From a virus (lineage: Duplodnaviria; Caudoviricetes), in the IMG/VR virus record IMGVR_UViG_3300032038_000070, positions 3,399 through 67,398 of that record: a DNA stretch of 64,000 bases. One strand, given 5' to 3'. The number at the start of each line of letters is the position of its first letter. Positions within the stretch are counted from its first letter, which is position 1. Below the pieces are notes generated by a model. The model was given only the letters and a program-made list of their open reading frames with translations, did no database searches and was not told where the DNA came from. Shown here one piece after another: positions 10,252-57,328 of this stretch. A program made the translations under genes and the position numbers.

Positions 10252-10255
10252 GAAT

Positions 10256-16617: not shown

Positions 16618-16715
16618 TAGGGTGTGTTCAAAGACTTGCTGTTCATCTTTCGTAACTCCTTACTTAGAAGGCGTCGGAATCTTCCGGCGCCTGTTTTATT
16701 GCCCGGAGGTGTCTT

Positions 16716-17198: not shown

Positions 17199-18490
17199 GC
17201 GCGGTCACATGGAGCCCGAAGCAGCGTGAGCTGATCATGGCACCCTTCGATCATACGCTTGACTGGATGGAAGGAACACCGAGATCCGGAAAGACGACAG
17301 CGGCAACAGCACGCTTCACGCGGCACCTGATTGGCTGCCGGGACACGAATCACCTGGTCACGGCCTACAGCGCAGAGCAGGCGTACAGGCTGATCATTGA
17401 CGGGGACGGCTTCGGCCTGATCCACAACTTCGCTGGTTATGTAAAACCAAGCCACGACGACGAGGGCGCGCACCTGCTGATCACGCTCCCGGAGAGTCGT
17501 TATGGATCCGAGAGGAACGTCCGGAAGGTCTACTGGAAGGGCGGCGGCAAAGCTGACAGCCACAAGAGCATCACCGGCATGAGTCTCGGGTCGGTCTACT
17601 TCTGCGAGATCAACCTGCTGCACATGACGATGATCCAGGAGTGCCTTCGCCGTACATACGCGGCAAAGGATCGCTGGCACATCGCAGACTGCAACCCGCC
17701 TGCACCGATGGATCCGGTCATCAAGGAAGTCCTCGAGGTGCAGGACTGCAGGTTCATGCATTGGACCTGCGCAGACAATCCAATCCTGACACCGAAGCGT
17801 CTGGAAGAGATCAAAACCGCCTGCAGCAAATCGACCTTCCTCTGGAAGCGCGACTGGCTTGGGGAGCGGACGATCCCGCAGGGCGTCATCTATTGGATGT
17901 TTGACACGTCCAGGCACATCCTCGACAGGATCCCTGATGGGCTGACAAAGCTTGAGATGTTCTTCGCCGGTGATGGAGGCGCGACGGATGCGACCTCGAT
18001 CGGGTGCTATGTCGTCTGTATGTTGGGCGACAGGAAGCACAGGCTTTTCCGCGTCGGTAACTGGCACTACGACGGCGGCCAGATGGCCATGAGCGACCAG
18101 GCGCGTCACATCTGCGGCGAGTTCATACCGGCGATGCGGCAGAAGACCGGGATGCGCGAGAGCTGCATCATGATCGACCCGGCGTGCAAGGCGCTGAGGC
18201 TCGAGATCGACAAGCTCGGATATTTGACGAACAAGGCCGACAACAACGGCCACGATATAAAGGGCACCAGCAAAGGGATCAAGGTTGGCATCGAGGAGCT
18301 GCAGAACGCGATCAGCGACGGCCGCTTCTACCTGGTCGACGATCCGCGCTACGGTGTTGAGCCGGCGATTAAGGAAATTGGCCTGTACTGCGTGGACGAC
18401 AACGGCGAGCCGGTTGACGCGTACAACCATTGCTGTGATGAAATGCGATACGGTCACAACTACTTCGCTAAGACATACGGGTACTGGTGA
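17195..18490 (+). CDS. terL: Terminase large subunit (PBSX-like)
   Basis: EGTPRSGKT Walker A, nuclease DGG.TD...IDPA...NHCCDEMRY. Confidence 0.93.
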   Translation: MSAVTWSPKQRELIMAPFDHTLDWMEGTPRSGKTTAATARFTRHLIGCRDTNHLVTAYSAEQAYRLIIDGDGFGLIHNFAGYVKPSHDDEGAHLLITLPESRYGSERNVRKVYWKGGGKADSHKSITGMSLGSVYFCEINLLHMTMIQECLRRTYAAKDRWHIADCNPPAPMDPVIKEVLEVQDCRFMHWTCADNPILTPKRLEEIKTACSKSTFLWKRDWLGERTIPQGVIYWMFDTSRHILDRIPDGLTKLEMFFAGDGGATDATSIGCYVVCMLGDRKHRLFRVGNWHYDGGQMAMSDQARHICGEFIPAMRQKTGMRESCIMIDPACKALRLEIDKLGYLTNKADNNGHDIKGTSKGIKVGIEELQNAISDGRFYLVDDPRYGVEPAIKEIGLYCVDDNGEPVDAYNHCCDEMRYGHNYFAKTYGYW

Positions 18491-20100
18491 TGTTTGAGAG
18501 GTTCAAAAAGATAATGCAGGACGCACTGACAAAAGCAGGCGCTCAGACGCTGATCGGGAAAGAATACAAGAGCATTTTTGACCTGGAGGGCGTCCCGGCC
18601 TATAACGAGTTTTACAACTTCGGGATCTTCCCGTGGAAGTACATCTATAAGGGCTTCTATAAGCCCTGGCACGTGGTCGCCGCTCCGACAATCGCGAACC
18701 CGGATGCAAAGCGGAACCTGTCCTACCTGAGCCTCGCGAAGGCCGTTTGCGCCGAGCTGGCCGGGATGGTCTGGACGGACCAGTGTTCTGTCGACGTCAG
18801 CATGGAGGGCTTCGATGGTGAGGACGATCCTCTCTGCGACTTCGTGCATGAGGTCCTGGAGAAGAACAACTTCGGACAGAAGATGCAGGAGCTGATCGAG
18901 CAGGGCGCGGCGCTCGGTGGCGCGGCTATGAAGGTCTGGCGCGAGGCAAGATATGACGCGAACGGCAACGAGATCGAGGGCACCGGGAAGATCCGGATCG
19001 GCTATGCGATGGCCGATCAGTTCGTCCCTATCGCCTGGGACAACGCGACAGTGAACGAGGGGATCTTCGTCAGCAGGCAGGCGAAGGGCGGTTACTATTA
19101 CACCCGCCTCGAGTGGCACAAGTGGGACGGACTGACATACGTCATAACGAACGAGCTCTACCGTTCGGAGATACGCAGGGGCGGCTACGGCGAAGCGCAG
19201 GACATCCTCGGCTTCAGGTACCCGCTTGCGGAGATCTATCCGTATCTGGACGAAGAGACACGGATCGACGTCGAAGAGTCTCTTTTCTCTTACTTCCGGA
19301 CTCCGATCGCGAACAACATTGACGATAACTCGCCGCTGGGTGTCTCGATGTACGCGAACGCACTGGAGACGCTGCACGCGATCGACATCTGTTTCGACAG
19401 CTTCGTCCGGGAGTTCCGTCTCGGTAAAAAGAGGATCATTGTCCCGGCGAGGATGATCCGGCAGGTCCCGGATCCCTTGACCGGCAGAATGATCCGGTAC
19501 TTTGACGCAAACGACGAGACTTACGAGGCGCTCTCGACTGATGATCCGGACACGCTGAAGATCCAGGACAACTCCGTCGAGCTGCGTGTGGAAGAGCACG
19601 TGGAGGCGCTGAACGCATTCCTGAATATCTTCTGCCTGCAGGTCGGGCTGTCCGCGGGGACGTTCTCTTTTGATGCACATGACGGTCTCAAGACCGCGAC
19701 GGAGGTCGTCTCCGAGAACTCGAAGACGTACAAGACCGTCAAGAGCTACCAGAACCAGATCACGCCCGCCATCAAGCGGATTGTGGACGCGATCATCACG
19801 GTCGCGCGCCTCTACGATATGGACTACGAAGGCCAGAAGATCGAGGCGCTCGCGTCGCGCGGCTACGAGGTCAAGGTCAGCCTTGACGACGGGATCACGC
19901 AGGACCGGCAGACAAACATCAACGAGGGCATCACGCTCGTCGGTGCCGGCCTCATGAGCAAGAAGACGTTCCTCACCGATCCGAAGTACGGGCAGAACCT
20001 GACCGACGAGGACGCAGACGCAGAGCTGCAGCGGATCGCGCAGGAGAACACCGTCACCCTGCCGCGCCTTGACGTGATGGACTACAACGGCGCGGAGTGA
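18487..20100 (+). CDS. Portal protein (A118/SPP1-like)
   Basis: DNSPLGVS.Y, EFRLGKKRIIVP, KTATEVVSENS; follows terL. Confidence 0.92.
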   Translation: MMFERFKKIMQDALTKAGAQTLIGKEYKSIFDLEGVPAYNEFYNFGIFPWKYIYKGFYKPWHVVAAPTIANPDAKRNLSYLSLAKAVCAELAGMVWTDQCSVDVSMEGFDGEDDPLCDFVHEVLEKNNFGQKMQELIEQGAALGGAAMKVWREARYDANGNEIEGTGKIRIGYAMADQFVPIAWDNATVNEGIFVSRQAKGGYYYTRLEWHKWDGLTYVITNELYRSEIRRGGYGEAQDILGFRYPLAEIYPYLDEETRIDVEESLFSYFRTPIANNIDDNSPLGVSMYANALETLHAIDICFDSFVREFRLGKKRIIVPARMIRQVPDPLTGRMIRYFDANDETYEALSTDDPDTLKIQDNSVELRVEEHVEALNAFLNIFCLQVGLSAGTFSFDAHDGLKTATEVVSENSKTYKTVKSYQNQITPAIKRIVDAIITVARLYDMDYEGQKIEALASRGYEVKVSLDDGITQDRQTNINEGITLVGAGLMSKKTFLTDPKYGQNLTDEDADAELQRIAQENTVTLPRLDVMDYNGAE

Positions 20101-35998: not shown

Positions 35999-36058
35999 CA
36001 TTTTTTCTCAAGCGAGCGATCTACGACTACTACAGGAACGTACAGCCGTAGCGGAGAC

Positions 36059-36486
36059 ACAATTTCCTACAATTTCAAATTGTACCCCAATACAATTAGA
36101 TTGCGTACGATTTAACGGTATGCGTTTTCCCTGTAATTACAGCATTTTGTCTTAAAAAATTTTGTGGAACAAGTAACCACTGAGGTCACAAAAGTGTCTG
36201 AGTGTCCGAAACTGTGCAAATTTACATCAGCGCAGAATTTTTGAATAACTCCACACAATTCAATAGACTATAATAGTTCATACAATTTCACACAATATCC
36301 AGGTACCCGGTCATACAATTCAATTTTGTACGATTTAACGTTGTGCGAAATCCCTGTAATTCTAGGCTTTTGTCCCAAAATTTTTTGTGGAACAAGTGAC
36401 CACCCCCATCATGAATCTGTCTGAGTGTCCAAAACTGTCCGTTTTTTGGTCAGCGTAAAATAAGCAGATAACTACAGACAATTTAC
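36059..36486. repeat. Two tandem copies (223-bp period) of a ~200 bp non-coding element; third copy at 52502
   Basis: Shared blocks TTTTGTGGAACAAGT (36160, 36383) and TGTCTGAGTGTCC (36195, 36418). Confidence 0.85.
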
Positions 36487-36525
36487 GGGTCAAAATTCTG
36501 TCCTAACCGGCAGCAGAAGAGCAGC

Positions 36526-38546: not shown

Positions 38547-41500
38547 ATGACAAAGACATACAGAGTGAAGATCACAACAGCAGCAGGAACACAGAGCAGC
38601 ATCATCACAGCTCGCAGCGCAGACAGCGCAGACAAGAAGGCCTACGGCATGATGCTCAAGGCAAAGGGCAGCAGATACATCGTTTACAGAATCGCAGCAT
38701 AAGGAGGTAACGAGATGGGAACATACAGAGAGCTTGTTGAGAAGGACAGAGCCGAATGGATTGGACAGAAGGTTTGGTTTGAAGGAGAGCAGTACACAGT
38801 AGTCGATGTCGATTATAACGGAGCGCTTCTGATTGACAAGAAAGCACGATTCACAGACACGACAGCAGTCAGCAGATTCCAGATTGAAAGGAGATGACGA
38901 CATGACAAACGAAAGAGCGATGCAGCACAGGATCATCGACAGTTGGCTCGACACTTGCTTCAACAAGAGGCATCAGACATTCGAAGAAGTTCTGGCAGGA
39001 GCCGAACGGCTTTACGAGGCCGGTGTGATGAGCCGGGCAGCTTACCGGATAGCGATCTACAGACTTACAGTCGAAACGCTCCACTAAGGAGCGTCTACCG
39101 AGGGACAGCCTCCCGGTACTGATGAGACAGGCTTCATATTGAAAGGAGAATAACGATGGTGGACTTCAGAGAGTACAGACAGGCAGTTAAGGAAAAGGTT
39201 TTAGAAATCAATACATTCGATAGATGCGGCAGCTTCCCTTGGAAGGCAAAGGTTCTGAAGAACGAGATTCGCCTCGCGAACAGCTACCTCGACGAGGGTA
39301 CACACTTCACAATCAAGTTCGTCGGCGACGAGGCCGAGCCGCTTACATGGGGCATCTTCGGATACAACACACTCGGCGAGCGCTTCACGATCCGCTGCAT
39401 CGGTGAGAGCAGATGGGACGATGGCGATACAGAGGCCTGCATCAGAATGGCAATCGACGATGCAAACAAGCACTTCAATTACTGCTACTAAGAAGGAGGA
39501 GAGACATGAGAGCAATCACATTCGAGACGACGAGGATTTACGACAACGGCATCTGCGGCGAAAAGCCGCTGAGATGCCAGTGGAGACAGGACAACGGAAG
39601 CCGGTGGTCAATCTGGACAGAATCATGGATCAACGGACAGTGGGTGAAAATCGACACAGGCTATCCACTGGAAAATGTTCTTGGAGCGGTCAACCGGTTC
39701 CGCAAAGACCCGGAGCAGTACATCATCAAGTTTGAGCTTATCTAAGGAGGAAGAGAGATGAAGAGAACAATCTACCAGAACAAGCGTGACGAAGACAAGT
39801 ACCTCGAGGTGGTGAGGTACAGCAGCGGTAACTACTACGCAGTCCAGTTCATGAAGTGGGGCAGCATCGTGAACAAGCTTGGCAGCAGGACAGGACGCAG
39901 ATTCCGGTGGACGAAGAGGAGCCTCGAGGCGCTCCTCGAGGACTACAGAGCGGTCGAGCCGTTCGAGATCAGACTGGTACACAAAGGAAGAATCTGGCAG
40001 CACGAAGCATAGGAGGAATGAGATGGCAAAGGGACTTACATACGAGGAGCTGATGGAATACGCGAAGCAGCACTACAACAAGGGAGGCGACAGCGTCTAC
40101 GAATGTTGGGACGAACGCACCTACAACGAGTACGTCGAGATGTTCGGGGCAATCACGAAGCGCAAAGCTCTGGCGATGTTCCGAATCGACTACGAGGTAA
40201 CGAGAGATCGGATGGGATGGTAAGGAGGAGAGAGATGGAGTTCACAAGAGAAGATATCGAGAAGGTTTACGACGAGCTTGACAGGAGGATGGAAATCGAC
40301 ATCAGAGATGAAGCCATCCCGTGGAACGGAGATAGCATCCGAGAAGAGAGAGCATCCCGGTTACAGGGAGTATACGGAACAATCATGGCGCTCGCCCCGG
40401 ATAAGAATTGGCAGGAAGTCGTAAGGTGGTTCGGTGAGATTGAGGAAGAGAGATACGGAGGTATGAGATGAGAAGAACAGCAATCGTATTTGACGCAGCG
40501 AGAGAGGGATACGGGATTGACCAGATTCGCAATCCCATGACGGTAAAGGAGCTGAGAGAGATTCTCGATGATTGTGAGGACGACGATCTCGTAATACTGT
40601 CCCACGACAACGGATACACATACGGCTCGCCGAGGTACCCGGCATACTACTGCGAAGGCAGCGACGGAGAGTGGGGAGAGATTTGAGGAGGAAGCATGAG
40701 AGCAGAGTTCGTAGAGGTCAGATATTGGGACGGCAAAATCAATGACGTGTGCGTCACAGCGTTCACGAGAGCGGAGGCTCTGGACAAGATAGAGGAGCTC
40801 GTCAAGAACAAGGGATACATCATGAACATCGAACAGTTCAGCGTACCGGTAGGAGGAGAGAAATGAGAGCAGGAGACAGAGACGACTGGTTCGAGCTTTG
40901 GTTCGAGGACAAGAGAAGCATCGAAGAAACGATGATTCGGAACATGATAGCAGACATCGAGGCCGGGTACGATCCGACCGGGAACATCATCAAGATGGAG
41001 CGCGACGAGATACAGCAGTACAGGAAGGAGGTAGATGATCAGATAGAGCGGTTCAAGGAGATGGAAGACGCAGCCGTCAACCGGTGGTGCTATTACGACA
41101 TGAAGAAGAGAGGAGCAATCGCATGAACAAGTACAAAGTCTATTACAGGCCGAAGAAGGACAATAACTACAGGGAGGCAGAGATCGCAGCCCCATCCAAG
41201 AAGCAGGCAGCTCAGCAAGTACACGAGGCATTCGAGGACTACGGAATGCCGGTCAAGATAGTTTACATTGAGGAGGTAGAAGCATGACAGACAAGATTAC
41301 AACAACAGATTTAGCAGACTTCGGCTACAGGGAGCTTGGCCTGCTTAGAGAGATCATCGAAGCTATGGAAGACCACGGCCTCCCGGAAGACTTCGAGAAC
41401 TGCGGAGTCACTCCGATGTTCAATACTCACAGCGGAGAGGTCTTCCTCACAAACGACGAGTACCAAGTAGCGATGGAACGCGGAGGCCGGTTGGAGAGTT

Positions 41501-46425: not shown

Positions 46426-46590
46426 GGACTTTTGAGCAGATAGACGCGGAGCGGCATCACTTCAGACGGTGGAAAACAAAGCACGTCAAAGCGGTACACA
46501 CAGCGAGCGGATGCCGGTTCGCATACGATACAGACAAGATAGACGACGAAGACTTTGAGGAGGAGTTGGAGACGTACAGGAGGGAACATC

Positions 46591-47010
46591 ATGGAAAGAC
46601 TACTGGTTGCAATTGAGCCGGGAGCATTTGTCCCGGAGAGAGCACACCGGGAGGACGCAGGCATCGACCTGCGCTCCCCGGTCGAGTGCAGCGTCATTAA
46701 GGGAAACCCGGCTATCATCGACACCGGGGTACACGTAGCGATCCCGGAGGGGTACGTCGGATTCCTCAAGAGCAAGAGCGGCCTAAACGTGAAGCACGGT
46801 ATCCGCTGTGAGGGAGTTATAGACGCAGGATACACTGGAGCGATTGTCGCGAAGCTCTACAACGACAGCAATACACCGTACCACGTAAGCAAGGGAGACA
46901 AGATTACGCAGCTCGTTATACTGCCTATTGCGACACCGGAGATCGAGGTGGTCACGATGATACGCGGAGGCGAGCGAGGCGACAACGGATTCGGGAGTAC
47001 GGGAAGATAA
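46591..47010 (+). CDS. dut: dUTPase (trimeric)
   Basis: DAGIDL, KSGL, GVIDAGY.G, GDKITQL, RG.NGFGSTG. Confidence 0.95.
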   Translation: MERLLVAIEPGAFVPERAHREDAGIDLRSPVECSVIKGNPAIIDTGVHVAIPEGYVGFLKSKSGLNVKHGIRCEGVIDAGYTGAIVAKLYNDSNTPYHVSKGDKITQLVILPIATPEIEVVTMIRGGERGDNGFGSTGR

Positions 47011-47787: not shown

Positions 47788-48527
47788 CATGATCTACAGA
47801 AAAGATGCGATAAAGAAAATCGCAGAACATCTTGGCATACCTGCTGAGAACTGGATGAAAATTGCAGAAGAGTGGATGAAAGATGTGCCCTCAGCACAGC
47901 CAGAAATCATTAACTGCCGTGAATGTCAACATTGGAAACAGGGCGAACTAGTAGACAAATGTGGATTGTTGGACTGTTATGCAGATGCGGATTGCTATTG
48001 CGCTTGGGCAGTGCGAGAGAGGAGACAGGAATGAGAATAGGATGGCACACAGAAAATCCACCGGACGGTAAAGAAGATTATCTGGTTCAATATGAATCCG
48101 GCAACATGGACGTTGCACATTGGACTAACGCTAATCCATTTTGGACAGACCATACTACAGATTGGCATTGGGTGGGGACAGCACAATTTGCTAAGGTTGT
48201 TGCGTGGTATCCGTTGCCGGAACCATTTGAAGGGAGACAGGAATGATAGTAGTCAATGAACGGTGGGTAATCCTTGTAGACGAGTACAACTACATCGTAG
48301 CTCCGAATAAGCCGATTAAGGACAGCAAGACCGGAGCAGACAAGTACAAAGCCAAGGCATACTGCAGAAGCCTCTCAGACGCGCTAGAACGCGTTCTTGA
48401 GGAGGAGGTGAGGATTTCCCTAGCCGATGGCGAAAAGTCGCTTGGCGACGCTGTGAGCACGGTTAGAACCGTATGTGAGGAGATGCGGTCGACCTTCAAC
48501 AGGATTTTGGAGGACGATCTCAAGTGA
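47780..48527 (+). CDS. Three small hypothetical ORFs (47780..48034, 48031..48246, 48243..48527)
   Basis: ATGA-coupled; a repeated GAGACAGGAATGA junction precedes two of them. Confidence 0.6.
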
Positions 48528-49045
48528 GGGAGAGCGAGATGAAGATGGAACCGGTTGATTATATGTTCAGCATCAACGGAATCAGAACGGATATATCGAG
48601 GAAGTACATGGAGATCGAGGAGCTGCGCAGTACAGCAATCAGCACCGGAGCGAAGATCAGCGGAGAGAGAGTACAGTCGAGCGGAAACGGAGACAAGACG
48701 TCCGGGATCATTGCGAGGATAGTTGACGCAGAGAAGGAGCTCCGCGAGATGGAGGAGACGTACTGTTCTGTTCTCGCAGCGATGCAGGAGGTAATCAACG
48801 AGGTTGACGACGACGATCTGAGGCTCGTGCTCACTTTTCGGATGATAGGCAGGATGAGCGGCTCACGTTCTACGGAGGAGCTTCGCATCCGCACCGGGAG
48901 AATCATACAGGAGCGGCAGGAACGGAGAATGTACCGAGAGGGAAGGCGAGCACTGAACGATATGCGGTACAACGCAGCATTCCTGCACCTCAAGGAGATT
49001 CTGGACAAATACATCAAAAAGCACCGAAAAGTTGTCCTCACATGA
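48524..49045 (+). CDS. ArpU/RinA-like late activator
   Basis: G.RVQSSG..DK...II..IVD.E motif; precedes the late promoter. Confidence 0.75.
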   Translation: MRESEMKMEPVDYMFSINGIRTDISRKYMEIEELRSTAISTGAKISGERVQSSGNGDKTSGIIARIVDAEKELREMEETYCSVLAAMQEVINEVDDDDLRLVLTFRMIGRMSGSRSTEELRIRTGRIIQERQERRMYREGRRALNDMRYNAAFLHLKEILDKYIKKHRKVVLT

Positions 49046-49096
49046 CCGCCGATTACCGGCGATGACCGCGAATGTCCGAATCGAATATGTTATAGT
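49043..49096 (+). promoter_or_regulatory. Putative late promoter B
   Basis: 10-bp-period repeats TGACCGCCGA / TTACCGGCGA / TGACCGCGAA; extended -10 TG-T-TATAGT at 49088-49096. Confidence 0.55.
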
Positions 49097-49177
49097 GTAT
49101 CATCCGATGTTCCACCATTATAACCCCTTAAGCCCCGAGGTACTTTGTTGCCCCGGGGTGATTTGTTTGGAGAGACA

Positions 49178-50239
49178 ATGAGAGCTGTTTTCGACTTCGA
49201 CGACACGATCTGCTACCACAAGGACAGAGAGCGCAGCGTAGACGCAGCGAGACCTATTGAGCTGACGGTAGACAAGATGCGGAGGATGAAAGAAGACGGT
49301 TGGGAGATTGTTATCTACACGGCACGAGGCCAGAAGTCATGCGGAGGAGATTTGGCGAAGATAGAAGCCAAGTACCGCAGCGTGATAGAGGACTGGCTCG
49401 CCCGGTACAAAGTACCTTGCGACGAGCTTTTGTTCGGGAAGCCTCTCGGAGACATTTACGTGGACGACAAAGGGGTAGGACTTGACAAGTTCGGGAGCAT
49501 GACAATGAAGCTCCTCAAAGGGAACAGCGGTAGCTCGGTTTACAGATGCGGAGAGCACGTACTGAAAACCTGTCCAAACGCGTACGAGCAGGCATCTTGG
49601 TACGAACAAGCAGAAACCCTCGGTGTGAATGTTCCGTATGTTTATTCTGTCGTTTTACATACGCTTGATATGTCTTGGATACGAGGACACAGCGCGTCGG
49701 ACGAGTTCAGCGCAGAGGACGCGATAAGGGTGCTCGGAATCGTGAAGAAGTTTTCCGCAATCAAAGCACCGAAGTTCAACGTCGAGGCGCTGATAGCAAG
49801 AGCACAGGAGCATCTTGGCGACAGGATAGAGAAGTTCGACGGCCTGTTCCAGTATCTCAGAGACAACATGGAGACATACGAAGTGTGTTCCTCGTTCTGC
49901 CACGGAGACCTGTCTCTGTCGAACATCATCATCGACAACAGAAAATCATACCTCATCGACCCGATAGTGAGACCGGAGTATTCGAGCTATCTGATGGACT
50001 TGGCGAAGCTGAAGTTCAGTGTGGAAGGCGGCGAAGAGTTCCTGCACAGGAAGACCGCCAGATACGAAGAGGCTGCACAGGTACTTAACCGGGAGTTGGA
50101 AGAGGAAGGCATCAAGAGAGACGTAGAAGCGCTACAGGCGATCTACTGGATACGGCTGCTGAAGTACACGGAGCCGGGGAGACAGGGAGAGGTCATCACG
50201 AAAGCAGCGCAGCTACAGCACAGGGTAGCATGGTTATAG
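49178..50239 (+). CDS. HAD phosphatase fused to an APH/choline-kinase-like phosphotransferase
   Basis: DFDDT, IYTARG, GKP.GDIYVDDK (HAD); FCHGDLSLSNII, LIDP, DLAKL (kinase). Confidence 0.82.
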   Translation: MRAVFDFDDTICYHKDRERSVDAARPIELTVDKMRRMKEDGWEIVIYTARGQKSCGGDLAKIEAKYRSVIEDWLARYKVPCDELLFGKPLGDIYVDDKGVGLDKFGSMTMKLLKGNSGSSVYRCGEHVLKTCPNAYEQASWYEQAETLGVNVPYVYSVVLHTLDMSWIRGHSASDEFSAEDAIRVLGIVKKFSAIKAPKFNVEALIARAQEHLGDRIEKFDGLFQYLRDNMETYEVCSSFCHGDLSLSNIIIDNRKSYLIDPIVRPEYSSYLMDLAKLKFSVEGGEEFLHRKTARYEEAAQVLNRELEEEGIKRDVEALQAIYWIRLLKYTEPGRQGEVITKAAQLQHRVAWL

Positions 50240-50673
50240 GATTTACATCGGTCGTAGGCGATCTATTACACGCAGGCCACGCACTCATGTTGGATGAGTG
50301 CAAGCGGCACTGCGATTTTTTATACGTTGGGCTTATCGGAGACCCGACGAAGGACAGACCGGAGAAGCACAAGCCGGTACAGTCAGTGTTCGAGAGGTAC
50401 TGCCAGTTGGTTTCGCACCGGGCAGTGGACGAGGTGGTTCCCCTTGAGGGAGAAGCAGACCTCGACCTCGCACTGCGGTCACTTCCCATCGACATACGGT
50501 TCGTAGGGGAAGATTACAAGGGGAAGGATTTCACCGGGCTGAGAACGTGCCAAGAGCTCGGCATAGAAATCTATTACAACAAGAGGGCTCACGGGCTTAG
50601 CTCGTCGGAGCTCAGAGAGAGGGTGGAACATGGAGCCGTTTGTAGTAGCGATACCGTCGTATCACAGAGCTGA
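50230..50673 (+). CDS. Cytidylyltransferase (TagD/glycerol-3-phosphate CT-like)
   Basis: DLLHAGH (HxGH), RFVGEDYKG, LSSS.LR. Confidence 0.88.
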   Translation: MVIGFTSVVGDLLHAGHALMLDECKRHCDFLYVGLIGDPTKDRPEKHKPVQSVFERYCQLVSHRAVDEVVPLEGEADLDLALRSLPIDIRFVGEDYKGKDFTGLRTCQELGIEIYYNKRAHGLSSSELRERVEHGAVCSSDTVVSQS

Positions 50674-51352
50674 CAGGCAGGATACACTCCAGTACCTCCG
50701 TGAAGTCGGTTTTTCTGTCCAACGTGTGTTCCTGGTCGTTCAGACGGAGGAAGACTGGGCTGCATACCAGAAGTACAAGGAATGGGCTACAACTGTGTAT
50801 ATTTCGGCATCCGGGATAGCACAGGCCAGAAACAACATCCTCGATTACCTCAGCGGCAGGCCGATACTCATGATGGACGACGACATCTCCCAGATCAGCA
50901 GGCTGACGGAGAACGGCCTCGAGAGGGTGGATGACTTCGAGGAGACGTTCCAAAAGCTCTTCGACCGGGGAAGCACGTTGTTCGGCATCTACCCGGTACA
51001 CAACGACTTCTTCATGAGCAGGACGGTCAGCACGAAGGTCACGGTGAATACCGTGCTCGGATTCCCGGCAGACAACAAGCTGAGATTCGACAGCAGCCTG
51101 CTCGCCAAAGAAGACATAGACCTCTGTGCGAGGATCCTCGACAGAGGAGGCAACGTCATTCGGTACAATTACCTAGCACCGAAGGCAAAACACCGGACGA
51201 ACAGCGGTGGATGCCACGACACTTGGAAAACAAAAGCGAATGAAGCTGCAGCAAGGCGGCTCGCGATGACATACCCGAAGGTGATTGCCAGACATCCGAG
51301 CAAGCCAGACGAAGTGAGGGTGATTATTAAGGACAGGAAGGTGAAAGCATGA
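50630..51352 (+). CDS. GT-A fold GREB1/TAGT-like glycosyltransferase
   Basis: VAIPSY.RA, ILMMDDDI, KED.DLC.R, GGC motifs. Confidence 0.75.
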   Translation: MEPFVVAIPSYHRADRQDTLQYLREVGFSVQRVFLVVQTEEDWAAYQKYKEWATTVYISASGIAQARNNILDYLSGRPILMMDDDISQISRLTENGLERVDDFEETFQKLFDRGSTLFGIYPVHNDFFMSRTVSTKVTVNTVLGFPADNKLRFDSSLLAKEDIDLCARILDRGGNVIRYNYLAPKAKHRTNSGGCHDTWKTKANEAAARRLAMTYPKVIARHPSKPDEVRVIIKDRKVKA

Positions 51353-51942
51353 ACACGGAGATCATGAAGCTCGAGGACATCAACCCTGCGCCGTACAATC
51401 CCAGAGTACCGATGAAGGATGGGGACACACAGTACGAAGCACTGAAGAAGTCCATCGGAAGATTCGGACTGGTAGAGCCGCTTGTGGTAAACAAGGCGAC
51501 CGGAACACTGGTCGGAGGACATCAGCGGCTATCAGCACTGAAGGCAAGCGGAGCAACGGAGGCAGAAGTCGTAATCGTAGACTTGCCGCTCGAGAAGGAG
51601 AAGCTCCTCAACATCGCGCTGAACAAGGTGGAAGGAATCTGGGACTTCGAGAAGCTTGACGATCTGTTCCGAGAGCTTGACCCGGAAGACATTCCCTTCA
51701 CAGGTTTCTCAATGGACGAGATCGGGAACCTGTACGACGATGAGCCGCTCGACATCGAGTACGAGGAGCAGGACATCAGCTTCGGTGATGATGCAGAAGA
51801 GAAGTTCACCGTCTACCTTTCCTTCCCGACAAAGGAAGATGCAGAAGAGTGGATGGCCGACAGAGGGATAGAGGGAGAGTTCTCCAACAAGCGAGCACTC
51901 ACCGTAACGATGAAGGGGTCGAGATATGGTACAGAACATTGA
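51349..51942 (+). CDS. ParB/Srx N-terminal domain protein 1
   Basis: PAPYNPR, FGLVEPLVVN, VGGHQRL, LNIALNK. Confidence 0.88.
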   Translation: MNTEIMKLEDINPAPYNPRVPMKDGDTQYEALKKSIGRFGLVEPLVVNKATGTLVGGHQRLSALKASGATEAEVVIVDLPLEKEKLLNIALNKVEGIWDFEKLDDLFRELDPEDIPFTGFSMDEIGNLYDDEPLDIEYEEQDISFGDDAEEKFTVYLSFPTKEDAEEWMADRGIEGEFSNKRALTVTMKGSRYGTEH

Positions 51943-52498
51943 GATAGGCAGGCTGCACGAAGCAGCATACAATCCGAGGATTGAGCTTGAGCCGGGGATG
52001 CCAGAGTACACAAAGCTCCAGAGAGGCATCGAGGAGTTTGGATTGGTAGAGCCGGTGGTGTGGAACGAGGAAACCGGGAACGTAGTTGGAGGACATCAGC
52101 GGCTGCGTGTGCTGAGAGACCTTGGATGGACAGAAGTGCCGTGTGAGGTTGTGCACCTCAGCCTCGAGGACGAGAAGGTGCTCAACATTGCCCTCAACAA
52201 GATTAAAGGCGAGTGGGACTACGAGAAGCTCGACGAGATTCTGAACGGCTATGAAGTCGACGAGGCGACGCTCAGCGGCTTCACGGCAGACGAGCTCGCA
52301 CTGTCTTTGGCGAAGGTAGATGACATCGAGGATGACCTCCCGGAGTTTGAACCGGCAGGCGACGACGAGCTGTTAGGCTCGTATGTCATTCAGCTTCAGT
52401 TCGCGAGCAACGATCTTGCCAGAGATTGGGCAGAGAGGGAAGGCTTCCCGGGACAAATTAAGCCCGGAAGCAGCACGACAGTCATCCGAATGGACTAG
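51926..52498 (+). CDS. ParB/Srx N-terminal domain protein 2
   Basis: AAYNPR, FGLVEPVVWN, VGGHQRL, LNIALNK. Confidence 0.88.
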   Translation: MVQNIEIGRLHEAAYNPRIELEPGMPEYTKLQRGIEEFGLVEPVVWNEETGNVVGGHQRLRVLRDLGWTEVPCEVVHLSLEDEKVLNIALNKIKGEWDYEKLDEILNGYEVDEATLSGFTADELALSLAKVDDIEDDLPEFEPAGDDELLGSYVIQLQFASNDLARDWAEREGFPGQIKPGSSTTVIRMD

Positions 52499-52501
52499 GA
52501 A

Positions 52502-52703
52502 ACAATTTCCTACAATTTCCGATTACCACTAACTACGATTCAATTTTGTGCGATTTAGTTTTGTGCGTTTTCCCTGTAAATAAAGGATTTTGTTCCCAGT
52601 GATTTCTTAGGGGAAACGACCATCGAGGTCATGAAAATCCGAGAATGTCCAAAACTGTCCATTTTCGGTCAGCGCAGAATAGTTGCACAATTTACGACAA
52701 TTT
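52502..52703. repeat. Third copy of the ~200 bp non-coding element
   Basis: ACAATTTCCTACAATTTC (same as 36059), TGCGTTTTCCCTGTAA (same as 36121), TGTCCAAAACTGTCC (same as 36426), TCAGCGCAGAAT (same as 36227). Confidence 0.85.
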
Positions 52704-53975
52704 ATGGAACTAAAAAAGAATTATTGCTCCCCGAGATGGACGATGGAGATACCAGACTGCTCCATGCCAATGACTTTTGACACCTACAGCAAGTGCGCGT
52801 ACAACTGCCAGTACTGTTTCAGCTACTTCCAGAAGAGTCATTCGATGACCGGGTATCTCGACGGCATGGTACGTTGTGTAGACCCGGAGAAGGTTAAGTC
52901 GCTCTTCACCAAGGCGCTCTCCAACGACGTAGAACACGCGAGCAAGAGCGAGCTGCAGTTCTTTCCCTACATCCAGAGCAGACGCATCATGCAATGGGGA
53001 GGACTGGCAGATGAGTTTGACGAGTATGAGCGCAGAGCAGGCATCACACTGGAGCTGTTGCAGTTCTTCGACAGCATCGACTATCCGCTGAGCTTCAGCA
53101 CGAAAGCAGCATGGTGGACGAAGGACGACAGGTACATGAGCCTGTTCAGAAAACACGCACACAACTGGCACGTAAAAATCTCCATAATCTGTCTTGATCC
53201 TGTCAAGGCGAAGGTGGTAGAGAAGGGCGTACCGTCTCCACAGGAGCGGCTGAGTGCTCTCCGAAGGCTCGCAGATATCGGGATTCATTGCACACTCAGA
53301 TTGAGACCGTTCATCATCGGAGTTTCCAATGACTGGAAGGAGCTTATAAACGAGGCGAAGAAGGCCGGTTGCGACAGCGTGACGACAGAGTTCTTCTGTA
53401 TGGAGAGCAGAGCGTCCGAAGATCTGAAGTCCAGATACGCAGAGATGAGCAAGGTCGCCGGGTACGACATCCACAAGTTCTACATGGCGAACAGTAAGCA
53501 GCAAGGATACAAGCGGCTTAACCGGTCGCTGAAGGCTCCAATCATCAAGGAGATGCGAGAGCACACACACTCGCTCGGGATGCGATTCCATGTTTCAGAC
53601 GCGTTCTGCCGGGAGTGCAACGACGCGATGAACTGCTGTGGAGTTCCCCCGGAATGGAACGTCAGCAGCGCAGGCCACATCGGAAACGCGATACTGATTG
53701 CCAGAGAAAAAGGCGAAGTGCGATTCAGTGACATCGCACCGGATATTGAGAAGTTCTTCGGGAGCTTTAGATGGGCAGACGCAATTGGATACAACACCGG
53801 GAGCAACAGAGCTCGTGCTCTGAACTACGCTACCACGATGGCAGAGTTCATCCGTAACAACTGGAACAACGTCAAAGGCGGCGACAGTCCTGCAAGGATG
53901 TACGGAGGAATATTACAGCCGGTAGGCCGAGACGAGAACGGTGATGTCATCTACAAGTACATGGGTAAAGCATGA
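52683..53975 (+). CDS. Radical SAM enzyme (SplB/spore-photoproduct-lyase-like); start may be ATG 52704
   Basis: DTYSKCAYNCQYCF (CX3CX2C), FSTK, LRLRPFIIG; stop overlaps the terS start. Confidence 0.85.
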   Translation: MHNLRQFMELKKNYCSPRWTMEIPDCSMPMTFDTYSKCAYNCQYCFSYFQKSHSMTGYLDGMVRCVDPEKVKSLFTKALSNDVEHASKSELQFFPYIQSRRIMQWGGLADEFDEYERRAGITLELLQFFDSIDYPLSFSTKAAWWTKDDRYMSLFRKHAHNWHVKISIICLDPVKAKVVEKGVPSPQERLSALRRLADIGIHCTLRLRPFIIGVSNDWKELINEAKKAGCDSVTTEFFCMESRASEDLKSRYAEMSKVAGYDIHKFYMANSKQQGYKRLNRSLKAPIIKEMREHTHSLGMRFHVSDAFCRECNDAMNCCGVPPEWNVSSAGHIGNAILIAREKGEVRFSDIAPDIEKFFGSFRWADAIGYNTGSNRARALNYATTMAEFIRNNWNNVKGGDSPARMYGGILQPVGRDENGDVIYKYMGKA

Positions 53976-54445
53976 ATTCATGGGATAGACAGCCGAAGGA
54001 GACCGCATACGCATACGAGGCTTTTACAGCGTACCTCGACCTACGGTCAAACATCAAGGTAGCGGAGCGGCTCGGACGGTCTAAGGATTCGGTCAACAAA
54101 CACTCACAGCGTTACAACTGGCCTCAGCGATTGCGAGACTATGATGCGTACATGAGGCGCGTAGCGGACGAATCGAAGAAAAAAGAGATCGAAGAGATGA
54201 ACCGGAGGCAGGTGCAACAGGGAATGCTGATGCAGAAGGTTGCAACAGACCGGTTGCAGGAGATTGTCAAGTCGGACGAATCTATTTCGGTCAAACTGCT
54301 CGTATCCATGATTATGAGGGGAGCAGAGATGGAACGGAGAGCACGTCTATACGGAGTTGCAGACGAGGCCGAGGAGAACGGTGGCAAGAGCACAAACGGA
54401 GTGCTCGAGTCGATACTGGAGATGGAACGCGATGGAATGGAGTGA
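53972..54445 (+). CDS. terS: Terminase small subunit B
   Basis: WDRQP.ET..AYEAF..Y, S.RYNW..R...YD; directly before terL; not evidently homologous to terS of phage A. Confidence 0.75.
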   Translation: MNSWDRQPKETAYAYEAFTAYLDLRSNIKVAERLGRSKDSVNKHSQRYNWPQRLRDYDAYMRRVADESKKKEIEEMNRRQVQQGMLMQKVATDRLQEIVKSDESISVKLLVSMIMRGAEMERRARLYGVADEAEENGGKSTNGVLESILEMERDGME

Positions 54446-55715
54446 AAAACAGCGGAAGACAATCATGGCTCCGTTCACACACACCATCGACTGGTTGGAA
54501 GGAACACCGCGATCTGGCAAGACGACAGCAGGCATAGCGAGATTCACACGGCACCTCATCAAGAGCCGGGACACGAATCACCTAGTCGTCGCATACAGCG
54601 CAGAACAGGCATACAGACTGATTATCGACGGAGATGGATACGGCCTCCTGCATAACTTTGCAGGAGTAGTGAGACCGTCGCACGATGATGAGGGAGCACA
54701 CCTTGTTATAACCCTCCCGGAGAGCCGGTACGGAAGCGACAACATCCGCAAGGTGTACTGGAAGGGAGGCGGCAAGGCAGATAACCACAAGGCTATCACC
54801 GGTATGTCCCTCGGAAGCGTTTACTTCTGCGAGATAAACCTCCTGCACATGACCATGATACAGGAGTGCTTGCGAAGAACATACGCAGCAAAAGACCGGT
54901 GGCACATCGCCGACTGCAATCCCCCAAGTCCACAAGACCCGGTGCTCAAGGAAGTGCTCGAGATACAGGACTGCAGCTTCACGCACTGGACTTGCGCAGA
55001 CAATCCGATACTTACCCCGGAGAGACTTGACGAGATCAAGACAGCCTGCTCGAAAAGCCCCTTCCTTTGGAAGCGAGACTGGCTCGGAGAGAGGACGATA
55101 CCACAGGGTGTCATCTACTGGATGTTCAACGTGGACAAGCACATCCTCAAGGACATCCCGAAGCAGGTCGCGAAGATAGAGATGTACTTCGCAGGAGACG
55201 GTGGAGCAACGGACGCAACGAGCATCGGATGTTACGTCGTAGGAATGCTACAGGACAGGCAGTACGCCCTGTACCGCGTAGGGAACTGGTACTACGACGG
55301 AGGCCAGATGGCGATGAGCGATCAAGCCCGGCACATCGTCGGGGAGTTCATGCCGGCTATGCGGCAGAAAACCGGGATGCGCGAGAGCGGCATCATGATA
55401 GACCCGGCCTGCAAGGCACTGAGACTCGAGATAGACAAGCTCGGCTGCGTTACGACGAAGGCAGATAACAACGGGCATGACATCAAGGGGAGCAGCAAGG
55501 GCATCAAGGTCGGAATTGAGGAGCTACAGAGCGGCATCACAGACGGACGGTTCTACATGGTCGACGATCCGCTTTACGGAGTAGAAGCAGCAATCAAGGA
55601 GATAGGCCTGTACTGCGTAGACGACAACGGAAACCCGGTCGACGCGTACAACCATGCCTGTGATGAGATGAGATACGGGCATAACTATTTCGCCAAGAAC
55701 TACGGGTACTGGTAA
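54432..55715 (+). CDS. terL: Terminase large subunit B
   Basis: Close homologue of 17195..18490. Confidence 0.93.
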   Translation: MEWSEKQRKTIMAPFTHTIDWLEGTPRSGKTTAGIARFTRHLIKSRDTNHLVVAYSAEQAYRLIIDGDGYGLLHNFAGVVRPSHDDEGAHLVITLPESRYGSDNIRKVYWKGGGKADNHKAITGMSLGSVYFCEINLLHMTMIQECLRRTYAAKDRWHIADCNPPSPQDPVLKEVLEIQDCSFTHWTCADNPILTPERLDEIKTACSKSPFLWKRDWLGERTIPQGVIYWMFNVDKHILKDIPKQVAKIEMYFAGDGGATDATSIGCYVVGMLQDRQYALYRVGNWYYDGGQMAMSDQARHIVGEFMPAMRQKTGMRESGIMIDPACKALRLEIDKLGCVTTKADNNGHDIKGSSKGIKVGIEELQSGITDGRFYMVDDPLYGVEAAIKEIGLYCVDDNGNPVDAYNHACDEMRYGHNYFAKNYGYW

Positions 55716-57328
55716 TGGCTATTTTTGAGAGGATAAGAAAAATCATGCAGGATACGTTGCAGAGGATTGGCACAGCGTCGGGTGTATCGAAAGAGTTCAA
55801 GGACATCTTCGAGATTACAGGAGTACCGGCATACAGGGAGTTCTACAACATCAGCATTCTTCCATGGAAGTACCTGTACAAAGGCTTCTACAAGCCGTGG
55901 CACTTCATCCCGGCACCTACGATTGCAGACCCGAACAATCACAGGAACATGGCCTACCTCAGCCTCGCCAAGGCCGTCTGCGCAGAGATCGCAGGAATGG
56001 TCTGGACAGACCAGTGCGAAGTGGATGTCTCGATGGAGGGAAATCAGAGCGAGGAAGACCCTCTGGACGAGTTCGTGAACATGGTGCTGAAGAAGAACAA
56101 CTTCAACACAGCGATGATCGAGGCAATCGAGAAGGCAGCAGCCCTCGGAGGCGAAGCACTCAAGGTCTGGTACGAGGTACGCAGAGATGCGGAAGGAAAC
56201 GAGGTACCCGACAGCGGCAGGATTCGCATCGGCTTCGCAATGGCAGACCAGTTTGTGCCGGTCTCTTGGGATAACGCAGGAGTGAACGAGGGTATCTTCG
56301 TTACGAGGACAGCGCGAGGAGGATACTACTACACGCTTCTGGAATATCAGCTCTGGGACGGACTTACCTACGTCATCCGCAACGAGCTGTACCGGGCAGA
56401 CAAAGCACAGGCATCCGGAGAAGCGCAGGACATCCTCGGGTACAGGTATCCGCTTGACGCACTTTACCCGCACCTCGACGAGGAGACCCGGATAGAGACG
56501 GAGTACAGCCTGTTCAGCTACTTCCGAACACCGGTCGCCAACAACGTAGACGACAACAGCCCTCTCGGAGTTAGCATCTACGGAAATGCTCTTGAGACGC
56601 TTCACGCGATCGACATTTGCTTCGACAGCTTCGTCCGGGAGTTTAGGCTCGGCAAGAAGAGAATCATCGTACCGGCCAGAATGATCCGCAACGTCACAGA
56701 CCCGGTCTCCGGGAAGCAGGTACGTTACTTCGACGCAACGGACGAGACGTACGAAGCACTGAGCACGGATGACCCGGACAGCTTGAAGATACAGGACAAC
56801 AGCGTCGAGCTGCGTGTAGAAGAGCACGTCGCAGCGATGAACGCTTTCCTCAACATCTTCTGCCTTCAGACTGGACTGAGCGCAGGAACATTTTCATTCG
56901 ATGCTCACGACGGGCTGAAGACCGCAACGGAAGTCGTCAGCGAGAACAGCAAGACGTACAAGACCGTCAAAAATTTCCAAGGCCAGATTACGCCGGCAAT
57001 CGAGCACATCGTACACGCGATCATCACAGTGGCTTCCCTGTACGACATGAAGTACGAAGGACGAAGTGTAGCAGAGCTTGCGGCAGGCGGCTACGATGTC
57101 ACCGTGACGCTCGACGACGGAATCACGCAGGACAGGCAGACGAACATCAACGAGGGCATCACGCTCGTAGGAGCAGGCCTCATGAGCAAGTACAAATTCC
57201 TCACAGACCCGAAGTACGGCCAGAACCTCACCGATGAGGATGCTAAGGCCGAGTTACAGAGGATAGCGCAGGAGAGTACAGTCACGATGCCGCAGCTAGA
57301 CGTGCAGGATTTCAATGGCATTGAATAA
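55715..57328 (+). CDS. Portal protein B
   Basis: Homologue of 18487..20100. Confidence 0.92.
   Translation: MAIFERIRKIMQDTLQRIGTASGVSKEFKDIFEITGVPAYREFYNISILPWKYLYKGFYKPWHFIPAPTIADPNNHRNMAYLSLAKAVCAEIAGMVWTDQCEVDVSMEGNQSEEDPLDEFVNMVLKKNNFNTAMIEAIEKAAALGGEALKVWYEVRRDAEGNEVPDSGRIRIGFAMADQFVPVSWDNAGVNEGIFVTRTARGGYYYTLLEYQLWDGLTYVIRNELYRADKAQASGEAQDILGYRYPLDALYPHLDEETRIETEYSLFSYFRTPVANNVDDNSPLGVSIYGNALETLHAIDICFDSFVREFRLGKKRIIVPARMIRNVTDPVSGKQVRYFDATDETYEALSTDDPDSLKIQDNSVELRVEEHVAAMNAFLNIFCLQTGLSAGTFSFDAHDGLKTATEVVSENSKTYKTVKNFQGQITPAIEHIVHAIITVASLYDMKYEGRSVAELAAGGYDVTVTLDDGITQDRQTNINEGITLVGAGLMSKYKFLTDPKYGQNLTDEDAKAELQRIAQESTVTMPQLDVQDFNGIE

Follow-up and report, generated by a model that had tools for sequence, protein, structure and literature searches.

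A candidate oxygen-independent DNA sugar-modification operon centered on a predicted radical SAM enzyme in a phage of anaerobic gut bacteria

In known phage DNA hypermodification clusters, a TET/JBP-type thymine dioxygenase (5mYOX) supplies the hydroxyl that later enzymes decorate (Burke et al., 2021, PMC8256090; O'Toole et al., 2026, PMC13229309). In these clusters, which often lie next to the terminase genes, short ParB proteins lacking an HTH domain sit beside the handle-making enzyme, and TAGT-type glycosyltransferases, kinases, HAD/APH enzymes and O-methyltransferases serve as partners. ParB has been shown experimentally to activate phage thymine dioxygenases on dsDNA, and both ParB-dependent and ParB-independent subclasses exist (PMC13229309). 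A second relevant system is the "contig 53" pathway, in which a HAD-like/APH-like bifunctional enzyme, a cytidylyltransferase and a DNA glycosyltransferase were all needed for mono- and di-heptose on DNA, acting on 5hmC made by a C5-methyltransferase plus TET (bioRxiv 10.1101/2023.12.21.572611). Radical SAM enzymes also act on thymine in DNA: spore photoproduct lyase (SplB or SPL; PDB 4fhc, 4fhf) works through thymine C5-methyl/methylene radicals, while gp53 of Pseudomonas phage M6, an SPL-like enzyme encoded within a thymidine hypermodification cluster, rearranges N-alpha-glycinylthymidine downstream of a dUMP hydroxymethylase, 5-HMUDK and an amino-acid transferase, and its gene sits next to one for a PLP decarboxylase (PMC8989533).

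An earlier note on a 64,000-nucleotide stretch of viral DNA (the window), taken from a 67.4-kb record, described six genes ahead of the terminase genes of the second of two phages (phage B) as a candidate hypermodification system. That observation was borne out. All six open reading frames lie on the + strand between 49178 and 53975, between a putative late-gene regulator and terS, and a GGAGAG Shine-Dalgarno sequence precedes the ATG at 49178. Genes g1 and g2 overlap by 10 nt, g2 and g3 by 44 nt, g3 and g4 by ATGA, and g4 and g5 by 17 nt; a non-coding gap of about 200 bp precedes g6, and g6 and terS overlap by ATGA at 53972-53975. The upstream regulator (48524-49045, +) matches phrog_36 ("transcriptional regulator", E 1e-4), and homologues occupy the same position in two related loci (L002 and L008). 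Downstream lie terS (53972-54445, +; phrog_6299, 1.1e-17) and terL (54357-55715, +; PF03237 and phrog_10250/phrog_2). The note's statement that phage A has nothing at this position also holds: phage A carries a 26%-identical homologue of the late regulator (16187-16513), terL at 84% identity (17198-18487) and portal at 75% identity, but no copy of any module gene.

The first three genes are predicted to make and transfer an activated sugar. g1 (49178-50239, +) encodes a fusion of a HAD-type phosphatase (residues 1-112; TIGR01689 capsule phosphatase, 8e-17; PDB 1xpj, 5e-12, and 9iqw) and an APH-fold small-molecule kinase (about residues 135-353; PF01636, 25.9 bits against a cut-off of 23.2). 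The DxDxT motif of the HAD domain and the HGDxxxxN...D motif of the APH domain are invariant in 15 homologues, and its AF2 model (pLDDT 90.7) gave APH(2''), choline kinase, methylthioribose kinase and maltokinase as top Foldseek hits. g2 (50230-50673, +) is a cytidylyltransferase-like nucleotidyltransferase with an HAGH motif (CTP_transf_like PF01467, 5.8e-10, 39.9 bits against 21; TagD, 6.5e-12; phrog_7878, 5e-24; PDB 2b7l and 1coz) that scores best against heptose-1-P adenylyltransferase (rfaE_dom_II, 8.6e-16) and is 50-86% identical in related loci. The note had called it a CDP-transferase, but it is a nucleotidyltransferase that makes the NDP-donor. g3 (50630-51352, +) is a TAGT-family (GT-A-like) glycosyltransferase with a DDD motif (PF20691, 1.1e-18, 68.3 bits against 27.5; phrog_842, 2e-24).

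The next two genes encode ParB paralogues that are 37% identical to each other. g4 (51349-51942, +) has a ParB/Srx N-domain with GGHQR, an acidic linker and a small C-terminal domain, with no HTH domain matched (PF02195, 8e-6, 26.2 bits against 26.3; phrog_620, 1.6e-40), and is conserved as the first of a pair in 27 of 27 close loci with enough flank. g5 (51926-52498, +) was assigned from PF02195 (5e-6, 26.8 bits against 26.3), phrog_498 (3.4e-38) and an alignment. Its nearest relatives outside the module are ParB_N domains fused to N6/N4 DNA methyltransferases. The non-coding element that follows (52499-52703) is the third copy of a genuine three-copy repeat, aligning with copies at 36040-36290 and 36265-36510 at 79% mean column identity; it matches no Rfam family and occupies the slot where other loci carry a P-loop kinase or TAGT gene.

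g6 (52704-53975, +) encodes a radical SAM enzyme (NF033668, 1e-17) with a CX3CX2C motif, which SPL also has. The note's description of it as SplB-like is confirmed at the level of fold only: the AF2 model (pLDDT 94.6) has SPL as its closest solved fold, with Z 20.3 and an rmsd of 2.8 A over 258 residues, against Z 16.1 for the next family, but no sequence-level match to SPL was found, about 120 extra C-terminal residues have no counterpart in SPL, and the inferred genomic role is modification rather than repair. C31, C35 and C38 are invariant and the C-terminal C311-C312 pair is near-invariant, whereas C19, C232, C302 and C305 are conserved only among close relatives. The family comprises 1764 clusters at 90% identity at E<=1e-5, and M6 gp53 is a distant homologue (34.7 bits over the barrel).

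Comparison of 53 related viral records and 5 anaerobe genomes showed that the radical SAM gene is the constant element, usually accompanied by ParB and always found with an enzyme that acts on a hydroxyl: a TAGT, a P-loop kinase with or without an amino-acid:DNA transferase, or an O-methyltransferase. All 27 close loci with enough upstream flank have ParB-ParB-radical SAM directly before terS, and terS follows the radical SAM gene in nearly all close loci. A more distant branch of the enzyme (44-51% identity) keeps the order g1-g2-TAGT-radical SAM in about 30 further viral records. Within the 27 close loci the variable partners are mutually exclusive: 15 have a TAGT and 12 have a P-loop kinase, joined in three loci (L003, L004 and L119) by an amino-acid:DNA transferase (PF18724, 32.7 bits against 26.2) plus a GNAT. 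The P-loop kinases, however, match the phage base-modification kinase family PF18751 only below threshold, and in only 3 of 10 members. Fusions link the functions, as TAGT-radical SAM, radical SAM-TAGT, P-loop kinase-radical SAM-TAGT and radical SAM-FkbM O-methyltransferase, with TAGT domains fused to the enzyme in P0123, P0126, P0135, P0141 and P0151. SAM synthetase is encoded beside the module in three loci (L005, L027 and L117), which fits SAM being consumed as a co-substrate.

No alternative source of the hydroxyl was recognized. Tet_JBP (E<=1) and C5-methyltransferases were absent from the 67.4-kb record, in agreement with the note, and 0 of 53 radical-SAM-positive viral records, 21 of them at least 90% complete and several with terminal repeats, have Tet_JBP or Thymidylat_synt. 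Absence by HMM is not absolute, as Pfam Tet_JBP is reported to miss some divergent phage dioxygenases (PMC13229309), and phage B is cut by the contig end at 64000. The same searches found ThyS in radical-SAM-negative records that carry the same HAD/APH plus cytidylyltransferase cassette (G029, G037, G050 and G065) and Tet_JBP in three others (G068-G070), where the cluster reads Tet_JBP, kinase, HAD, TAGT, CTP_transf (locus L092), a close counterpart of the window's gene set. One 188-kb phage has the donor cassette but none of radical SAM, TET or ThyS. Because only 1 of 22 near-complete radical-SAM-positive records has a C5-methyltransferase, thymine is the only general 5-methylpyrimidine available. 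The hosts of close homologues are strict anaerobes (Selenomonas ruminantium, Acutalibacteraceae, Oscillospiraceae and cecal Clostridia), and the stretch lies colinear at about 96% identity in a sheep-gut contig.

The reading that we consider somewhat more likely than not is that these genes form a post-replicative DNA hypermodification operon. In this view, the radical SAM enzyme, helped onto double-stranded DNA by the two ParB paralogues, would use the 5'-deoxyadenosyl radical to abstract a hydrogen from the C5-methyl of thymine, and the resulting thymidyl radical would be oxidized by one electron and captured by water to give 5-hydroxymethyluracil, with SAM as the oxidant and no requirement for O2. 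The kinase and phosphatase domains of g1 and the nucleotidyltransferase g2 would convert a host sugar phosphate into an NDP-sugar, probably an NDP-heptose, and the TAGT would transfer it to the new hydroxyl. While the gene set, domains, synteny, fusions, hosts and absence of alternative handle-makers are shown by the analysis, the target base, the hydroxylation chemistry and the sugar are inferred, without chemical evidence of any kind; the donor steps rest on analogy with the reconstituted cassette, and the transfer step on family and fusions. No radical SAM enzyme that hydroxylates DNA is known to us, no paper describing this chemistry was found, and the family lacks a universally conserved auxiliary-cluster motif of the kind that radical SAM oxidases usually use to remove the second electron. 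Complex prediction of the radical SAM enzyme against ParB1 plus ParB2 gave weak support (score 0.51, best control 0.00): the mark was reached by 58 of 80 solved complexes and 2 of 110 mismatched pairs, but at 0.60 or under by only 7 of the 80 solved and by both mismatches; the runs agree in at least 29% of contacts, and partner pLDDT is at least 82. Complete radical-SAM-positive genomes without ParB also exist, mirroring the two dioxygenase subclasses.

The interpretation offered in the note, an oxygen-independent route attaching a CDP-activated polyol-phosphate or sugar to a base during packaging, is supported in part. Its central inference, that an SPL-like radical SAM enzyme replaces the O2-dependent TET/JBP oxidase in a phage of anaerobes, has gained comparative support from conserved synteny, domain fusions, mutual exclusion with TET/JBP and ThyS, and anaerobic hosts, although the chemistry of the radical SAM step remains inference. 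The donor cassette is not undescribed: the contig 53 combination was reconstituted and gave heptosyl-5hmC, so an NDP-heptose-type sugar is more likely than a CDP-polyol-phosphate. The heptose assignment in that precedent rests on mass alone and was made in E. coli with a GT-B enzyme; here the glycosyltransferase is TAGT, no methyltransferase or TET exists, and the likely base is thymine. Nothing shows that the reaction happens during packaging; the adjacency to the terminase is positional. Relative to the dioxygenase clusters, no Fe(II)/2-oxoglutarate dioxygenase is present in the record or in the 53 related records, an SPL-fold radical SAM enzyme stands in its place, there are two ParB paralogues instead of one, and the hosts are strict anaerobes.

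Other explanations are less likely but deserve consideration. It is possible, though only tentatively supported, that the enzyme installs a different handle, such as a 5'-deoxyadenosyl or other carbon adduct on a base or a hydroxyl on another base or position, which the glycosyltransferase, kinase or O-methyltransferase then decorates. The partner enzymes imply only a hydroxyl-bearing acceptor and not its position, radical SAM adenosylation is known (MqnE appears among the fold matches), and the C-terminal extension and Cys-Cys pair have no counterpart in SPL. However, the amino-acid:DNA transferase family that accompanies the kinase in L003, L004 and L119 is known only from 5-hmdU-derived pathways (PMC8989533), TAGT is defined by its association with 5-hydroxymethylpyrimidine makers, and the best structural relative handles thymine-methyl radicals.

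It is more doubtful that the enzyme is a downstream tailoring enzyme like M6 gp53, an isomerase of an appended group, with the hydroxymethyl handle coming from an unrecognized phage enzyme or from the host. Despite the weak homology with gp53, the enzyme is the invariant member of the module while the decorating enzymes vary between sugar, phosphate, amino acid and methyl, and one tailoring activity would not fit all of those products; furthermore, complete genomes carry no ThyS or TET source of the handle, and some loci hold only ParB, a kinase and the radical SAM enzyme. Least likely is that the module glycosylates a virion or packaging protein, or a host cell-wall polymer, with a teichoic-acid/capsule-type donor, leaving ParB and the radical SAM enzyme a separate role in packaging or repair. 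This would accord with the resemblance of the g1 phosphatase domain to capsule-biosynthesis phosphatases, the resemblance of g2 to TagD and HldE, and the location of the genes in the late, structural operon. Against it stand the fusions of TAGT and P-loop kinase domains to the radical SAM enzyme, the amino-acid:DNA transferase in the same slot, the affinity of the ParB domains to those fused to DNA methyltransferases, the presence of the same donor cassette with TAGT next to a TET/JBP DNA oxidase in L092, and the demonstration that the cassette feeds DNA glycosylation.

Six genes just ahead of the packaging genes of a phage of oxygen-free gut bacteria most likely make an activated sugar and attach it to phage DNA, with an iron-sulfur radical enzyme and two ParB helpers where known phages use an oxygen-requiring oxidase. 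The product would be a glycosylated thymine that protects phage DNA from host nucleases and, if confirmed, the pathway would represent a new way to hydroxylate DNA without oxygen.

The window is bases 3399-67398 of a 67.4-kb IMG/VR virus record that holds two related temperate phages, and in phage B six genes on the + strand lie between a putative late regulator (48524-49045, phrog_36) and terS: g1 (49178-50239), g2 (50230-50673), g3 (50630-51352), g4 (51349-51942), g5 (51926-52498) and g6 (52704-53975). Successive genes overlap by 4-44 nt, except for a 205-bp non-coding gap before g6, and the g6 stop overlaps the terS start. Comparison of 16187-20097 in phage A with 48524-57328 in phage B showed that the two phages share a homologue of the regulator (26% identity), terL (84%) and portal (75%), whereas no copy of any of the six genes was found in phage A. 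The module is therefore an insertion-like cassette in a conserved packaging region. The observation in the earlier note, of six genes ahead of the terminase in phage B with nothing comparable in phage A, held. A blastn search of the module against GenBank phages returned only three short matches at 65-71% identity and no annotated relative.

The g1 product is a fusion of a HAD phosphatase and an APH-fold kinase. Its phosphatase part resembles the capsule-phosphatase subfamily (TIGR01689, 8e-17, below the cut-off of that model; PDB 1xpj, 5e-12), and the motif D6-x-D8-x-T10 is invariant in 15 homologues. The kinase part matches PF01636 above its cut-off (25.9 bits against 23.2), with H242, D244, N249 and D261 of the HGDxxxxN...D motif also invariant. 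An AF2 model (pLDDT 90.7) gave APH(2''), choline kinase, methylthioribose kinase and maltokinase as top Foldseek hits, but the predicted fold does not separate sugar kinases from choline or aminoglycoside kinases and so does not fix the donor. The g2 product, of 147 aa, is a cytidylyltransferase-like nucleotidyltransferase with an HAGH motif near its N-terminus (PF01467, 39.9 bits against 21). It scores best against the heptose-1-phosphate adenylyltransferase domain of HldE (8.6e-16, though far below the cut-off) and next against TagD. The g3 product is a TAGT glycosyltransferase (PF20691, 68.3 bits against a gathering score of 27.5, covering profile positions 3-205 of 205). The g4 and g5 products are 37%-identical ParB-N paralogues, each with an invariant GGHQR motif, an acidic linker and a small C-terminal domain. 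Their Pfam ParB_N scores are borderline (26.2 and 26.8 bits against 26.3), while PHROG ParB families match at E 1e-36 to 1e-40. In profile searches alone, no HTH family such as that of chromosome-partition ParB matched these proteins of only 190-197 aa.

The g6 product is a radical SAM (rSAM) enzyme, in which C31, C35 and C38 of the CX3CX2C motif that binds the [4Fe-4S] cluster are invariant or near-invariant in 121 close and 60 diverse homologues. Its PF04055 score (22.3 bits) is below the gathering cut-off of 29.5, but an AF2 model built with a 60-sequence alignment (pLDDT 94.6) has the partial TIM-barrel fold, and every top structural match is a radical SAM enzyme. The six best of these are all spore photoproduct lyase (SPL; Z 19.8-20.3, rmsd 2.8-3.0 A over about 260 residues), and the next family is at Z 16.1. 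Because phmmer with g6 and hmmsearch with the family profile found no SPL match among PDB sequences (at E<=1 and E<=10, respectively), nor any other meaningful hit, the description 'SplB-like' in the earlier note holds for the predicted fold only. The curated NCBIfam radical SAM families PA0069 and Rv2578c are distant relatives only, with 64 bits against a cut-off of 360 and 45.8 against 430. About 120 C-terminal residues are extra relative to SPL and carry a near-invariant Cys-Cys pair. An auxiliary four-cysteine cluster (C302, C305, C311, C312) looked plausible among close relatives, but it is not conserved across the family and was rejected as a family-defining feature.

A search of IMG/VR with g6 gave 24 loci at 68-80% identity, and the species-representative genomes gave five more, in Selenomonas ruminantium, Acutalibacteraceae, Oscillospiraceae and two cecal Clostridia MAGs, all strict anaerobes. 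In all 27 loci with enough upstream DNA the order is ParB, ParB, rSAM, terS, while the other genes vary. Fifteen loci carry a TAGT-like glycosyltransferase, which is accompanied by the g1+g2 cassette in loci L011, L018 and L019, by a second radical SAM enzyme with a SPASM domain in L005, L017 and L027, and in L005 and L027 by a SAM synthetase as well. The SPASM enzyme, encoded directly upstream of TAGT (L005:4680-5732, L017:5162-6094; also in the related loci L113-L115 and L117) and absent from the window, may tailor the sugar or the base further. Twelve loci carry a small P-loop kinase instead, joined in L003 and L004 by an amino-acid:DNA transferase (PF18724, above its cut-off) and a GNAT acetyltransferase, and in L015 by a GNAT. 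The Selenomonas ruminantium S137 prophage (L026) is of the kinase class. In this sample the glycosyltransferase and the kinase never occur together. The kinases are kinase-fold P-loop proteins of uncertain family, as the best score against the 5-HMUDK-type family PF18751 was 23.4 bits against 27 and only 3 of 10 members matched at E<=0.01. Those at L003:6351-6815, L015:2323-2748 and L025:7502-8005 match phrog_800, labelled 'terminase small subunit', over its N-terminal part, which could cause mis-annotation of the kinases as terS.

A search of 1.84 billion representatives found 1298 relatives of the radical SAM enzyme, 168 of them at E<=1e-30. Several are fusions, namely TAGT-rSAM, rSAM-TAGT, P-loop kinase-rSAM-TAGT and rSAM-FkbM O-methyltransferase. 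Three homologues (P0131, P0151 and P0214) are interrupted by inteins with Intein_splicing, LAGLIDADG or DUF559 endonuclease domains, and one of them also carries a C-terminal TAGT domain. Glycosyltransferase, kinase and O-methyltransferase all act on a hydroxyl group, and the amino-acid:DNA transferase is known only from pathways that start from 5-hydroxymethyl-dU in DNA (PMC8989533).

Phages in which 5-hydroxymethylpyrimidines are known use either a thymidylate-synthase-like hydroxymethylase (ThyS) before replication or a TET/JBP-type dioxygenase after it, the latter sometimes being ParB-dependent (PMC13229309; PMC8256090). The window shares with the dioxygenase clusters the accessory set listed in PMC13229309 (ParB, TAGT, kinase/HAD and terminase adjacency). 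However, no Tet_JBP (PF12851) match was found at E<=1 in the whole record or in the 24 close records, and the close records also lacked ThyS. A single-protein pattern search of viral contigs with g1 found nothing, but a g1 alignment brought in about 45 records with a full-length HAD/APH plus cytidylyltransferase cassette. The 29 of these that also carry the rSAM (44-51% identity, usually in the order g1-g2-TAGT-rSAM) again have neither family, Tet_JBP being absent at E<=0.1. Thus, 0 of 53 rSAM-positive records, 21 of them at least 90% complete, have either, although absence by HMM could miss divergent dioxygenases. The sample is not an unbiased TAGT-centred census, as an alignment led by the TET-linked TAGT was too divergent to search with.

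The same searches were positive in rSAM-negative records, with ThyS in the cassette-bearing records G029, G037, G050 and G065 and Tet_JBP in G068-G070. In locus L092 the cluster reads Tet_JBP, nucleotidyltransferase/choline-kinase-like, HAD, TAGT, cytidylyltransferase, which is nearly the window's gene set with a dioxygenase in place of ParB-ParB-rSAM. Because only 1 of 22 near-complete rSAM-positive records encodes a C5-methyltransferase, thymine is the only generally available 5-methylpyrimidine. In the early region of phage B, a dUTPase (46555-47010, +; PF00692, 8.6e-26) lies beside ERF, SSB and Gp157 genes, and no methyltransferase or thymidylate-synthase homologue was seen there. One exception stands: a 188-kb phage with terminal repeats and 29.5% GC (IMGVR_UViG_3300031555_003801) has the donor cassette but no rSAM, TET or ThyS match. 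Its HAD/APH homologue (L061:10001-11068) has five in-frame TAG codons and no other stops, and one TAG aligns with a glutamine of the window protein, so that this is probably a TAG-recoded jumbo phage.

Outside the module, the closest relatives of the ParB N-domain (45-58% identity) are ParB_N fused to N6/N4 DNA methyltransferases. These fusions are very common in viral contigs (loci L123-L188), often as tandem pairs (e.g. L127:5995-7299 and 8996-10312; L149:5995-8549) and in several cases next to a SAM synthetase gene. This ParB clade therefore accompanies DNA-modifying enzymes. Complete rSAM-positive genomes of the distant branch (G039 and G063) lack ParB altogether, which parallels the ParB-dependent and ParB-independent dioxygenase subclasses. 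A complex prediction of g6 against g4+g5 gave only weak support, with a score of 0.51 against a best control of 0.00, contact agreement of at least 29% and partner pLDDT of at least 82. The mark was reached by 58 of 80 solved complexes and 2 of 110 mismatched pairs, but at 0.60 or under by only 7 of the 80 solved and by both mismatches.

Between ParB2 and the rSAM gene, in the slot where other loci carry a P-loop kinase or TAGT gene, lies the third copy (52485-52720) of a non-coding element of about 200 bp, two further copies of which are in tandem next to the integrase (36040-36290 and 36265-36510; 79% mean column identity). No Rfam family matches it, and it could be a regulatory site or a recombination scar. 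A promoter/terminator consensus scan gave fewer promoter-like sites than the shuffled sequence and nothing at the operon start. The early region of phage B also contains a type II hammerhead ribozyme (39069-39136, +; RF02276, 49.2 bits against a gathering score of 37, covering the full-length model). Contigs from goat, sheep and other animal gut metagenomes of several studies, which cannot show base modification, hold the stretch, and one 11.5-kb sheep-gut contig covers 49100-56000 colinearly at about 96% identity.

A preprint on virus-encoded DNA glycosyltransferases reports that 'contig 53' encodes a HAD-like/APH-like bifunctional enzyme, a cytidylyltransferase and a DNA glycosyltransferase, all three of which were needed in E. 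coli to put one or two heptoses on 5hmC (10.1101/2023.12.21.572611). Kinase, phosphatase and nucleotidyltransferase are the three activities of the heptose-7-P to NDP-heptose route of ADP-heptose biosynthesis. By this analogy an NDP-heptose-type sugar is favoured over the CDP-polyol-phosphate proposed in the earlier note, although it is only about as likely as not. The interpretation offered there was supported only in part.

In the mechanism proposed here, the radical SAM enzyme would abstract a hydrogen from the thymine methyl group to give the same allylic radical that SPL handles, and this radical would lose one electron and be trapped by water to give 5hmU. SAM would serve as the two-electron oxidant, which fits the neighbouring SAM synthetases. 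The ParBs would give access to double-stranded DNA, TAGT would glycosylate the hydroxyl, and packaging would follow. While the gene order, domain content, fusions and distribution rest on direct comparison, every chemical step is inferred, as are the substrate of the donor enzymes and the role of the ParBs. The proposal is weakened by the lack of a known precedent for radical SAM hydroxylation of DNA, by the absence of a conserved auxiliary cluster in the family and by the sub-threshold match of the kinase to the base-modification kinase family.

Other explanations appear less likely. That the enzyme installs a different handle is unlikely but is the strongest of the alternatives. A tailoring role like that of phage M6 gp53, a radical SAM isomerase of a modified thymidine, is more doubtful, because the enzyme stays constant while the appended chemistry varies and because no other source of the handle was found in the records searched. 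A target other than DNA is the least likely, being disfavoured by the fusions, by the amino-acid:DNA transferase in the same slot and by the TET-linked counterpart cluster.

Phage 5-hydroxymethylpyrimidine hypermodification is already known, and what would be new, if confirmed, is the entry enzyme. Every known route to 5-hydroxymethylpyrimidines in DNA is either pre-replicative (a thymidylate-synthase-like hydroxymethylase) or needs O2 (TET/JBP), and how phages of strict anaerobes build such modifications was not addressed in the papers searched. Full-text literature searches, which did not cover many subscription papers, found no description of this enzyme family, of a radical SAM enzyme making 5hmU, or of one partnered with ParB and TAGT. 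It is possible, at slightly less than even odds, that g6 founds a family of radical SAM DNA hydroxylases, which would be the first oxygen-independent route from thymine to 5-hydroxymethyluracil in DNA, with SAM as oxidant and the oxygen taken from water. Like the TET/JBP dioxygenases it would replace, the family would have ParB-dependent and ParB-independent subclasses, and thousands of gut and rumen phages would use it as the entry step to glycosyl, phospho/amino-acid and methoxy thymine hypermodifications. Such an enzyme could also give an oxygen-free tool for site-selective DNA functionalisation, and the two phages with 84%-identical terminases, one with the module and one without, offer a natural comparison on a single contig. 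A radical SAM DNA hydroxylase would explain a very common unannotated gene of gut and rumen phages (1764 clusters at 90% identity) and would predict hypermodified DNA in many of them, which would affect sequencing bias, restriction and CRISPR evasion, and host-range prediction.
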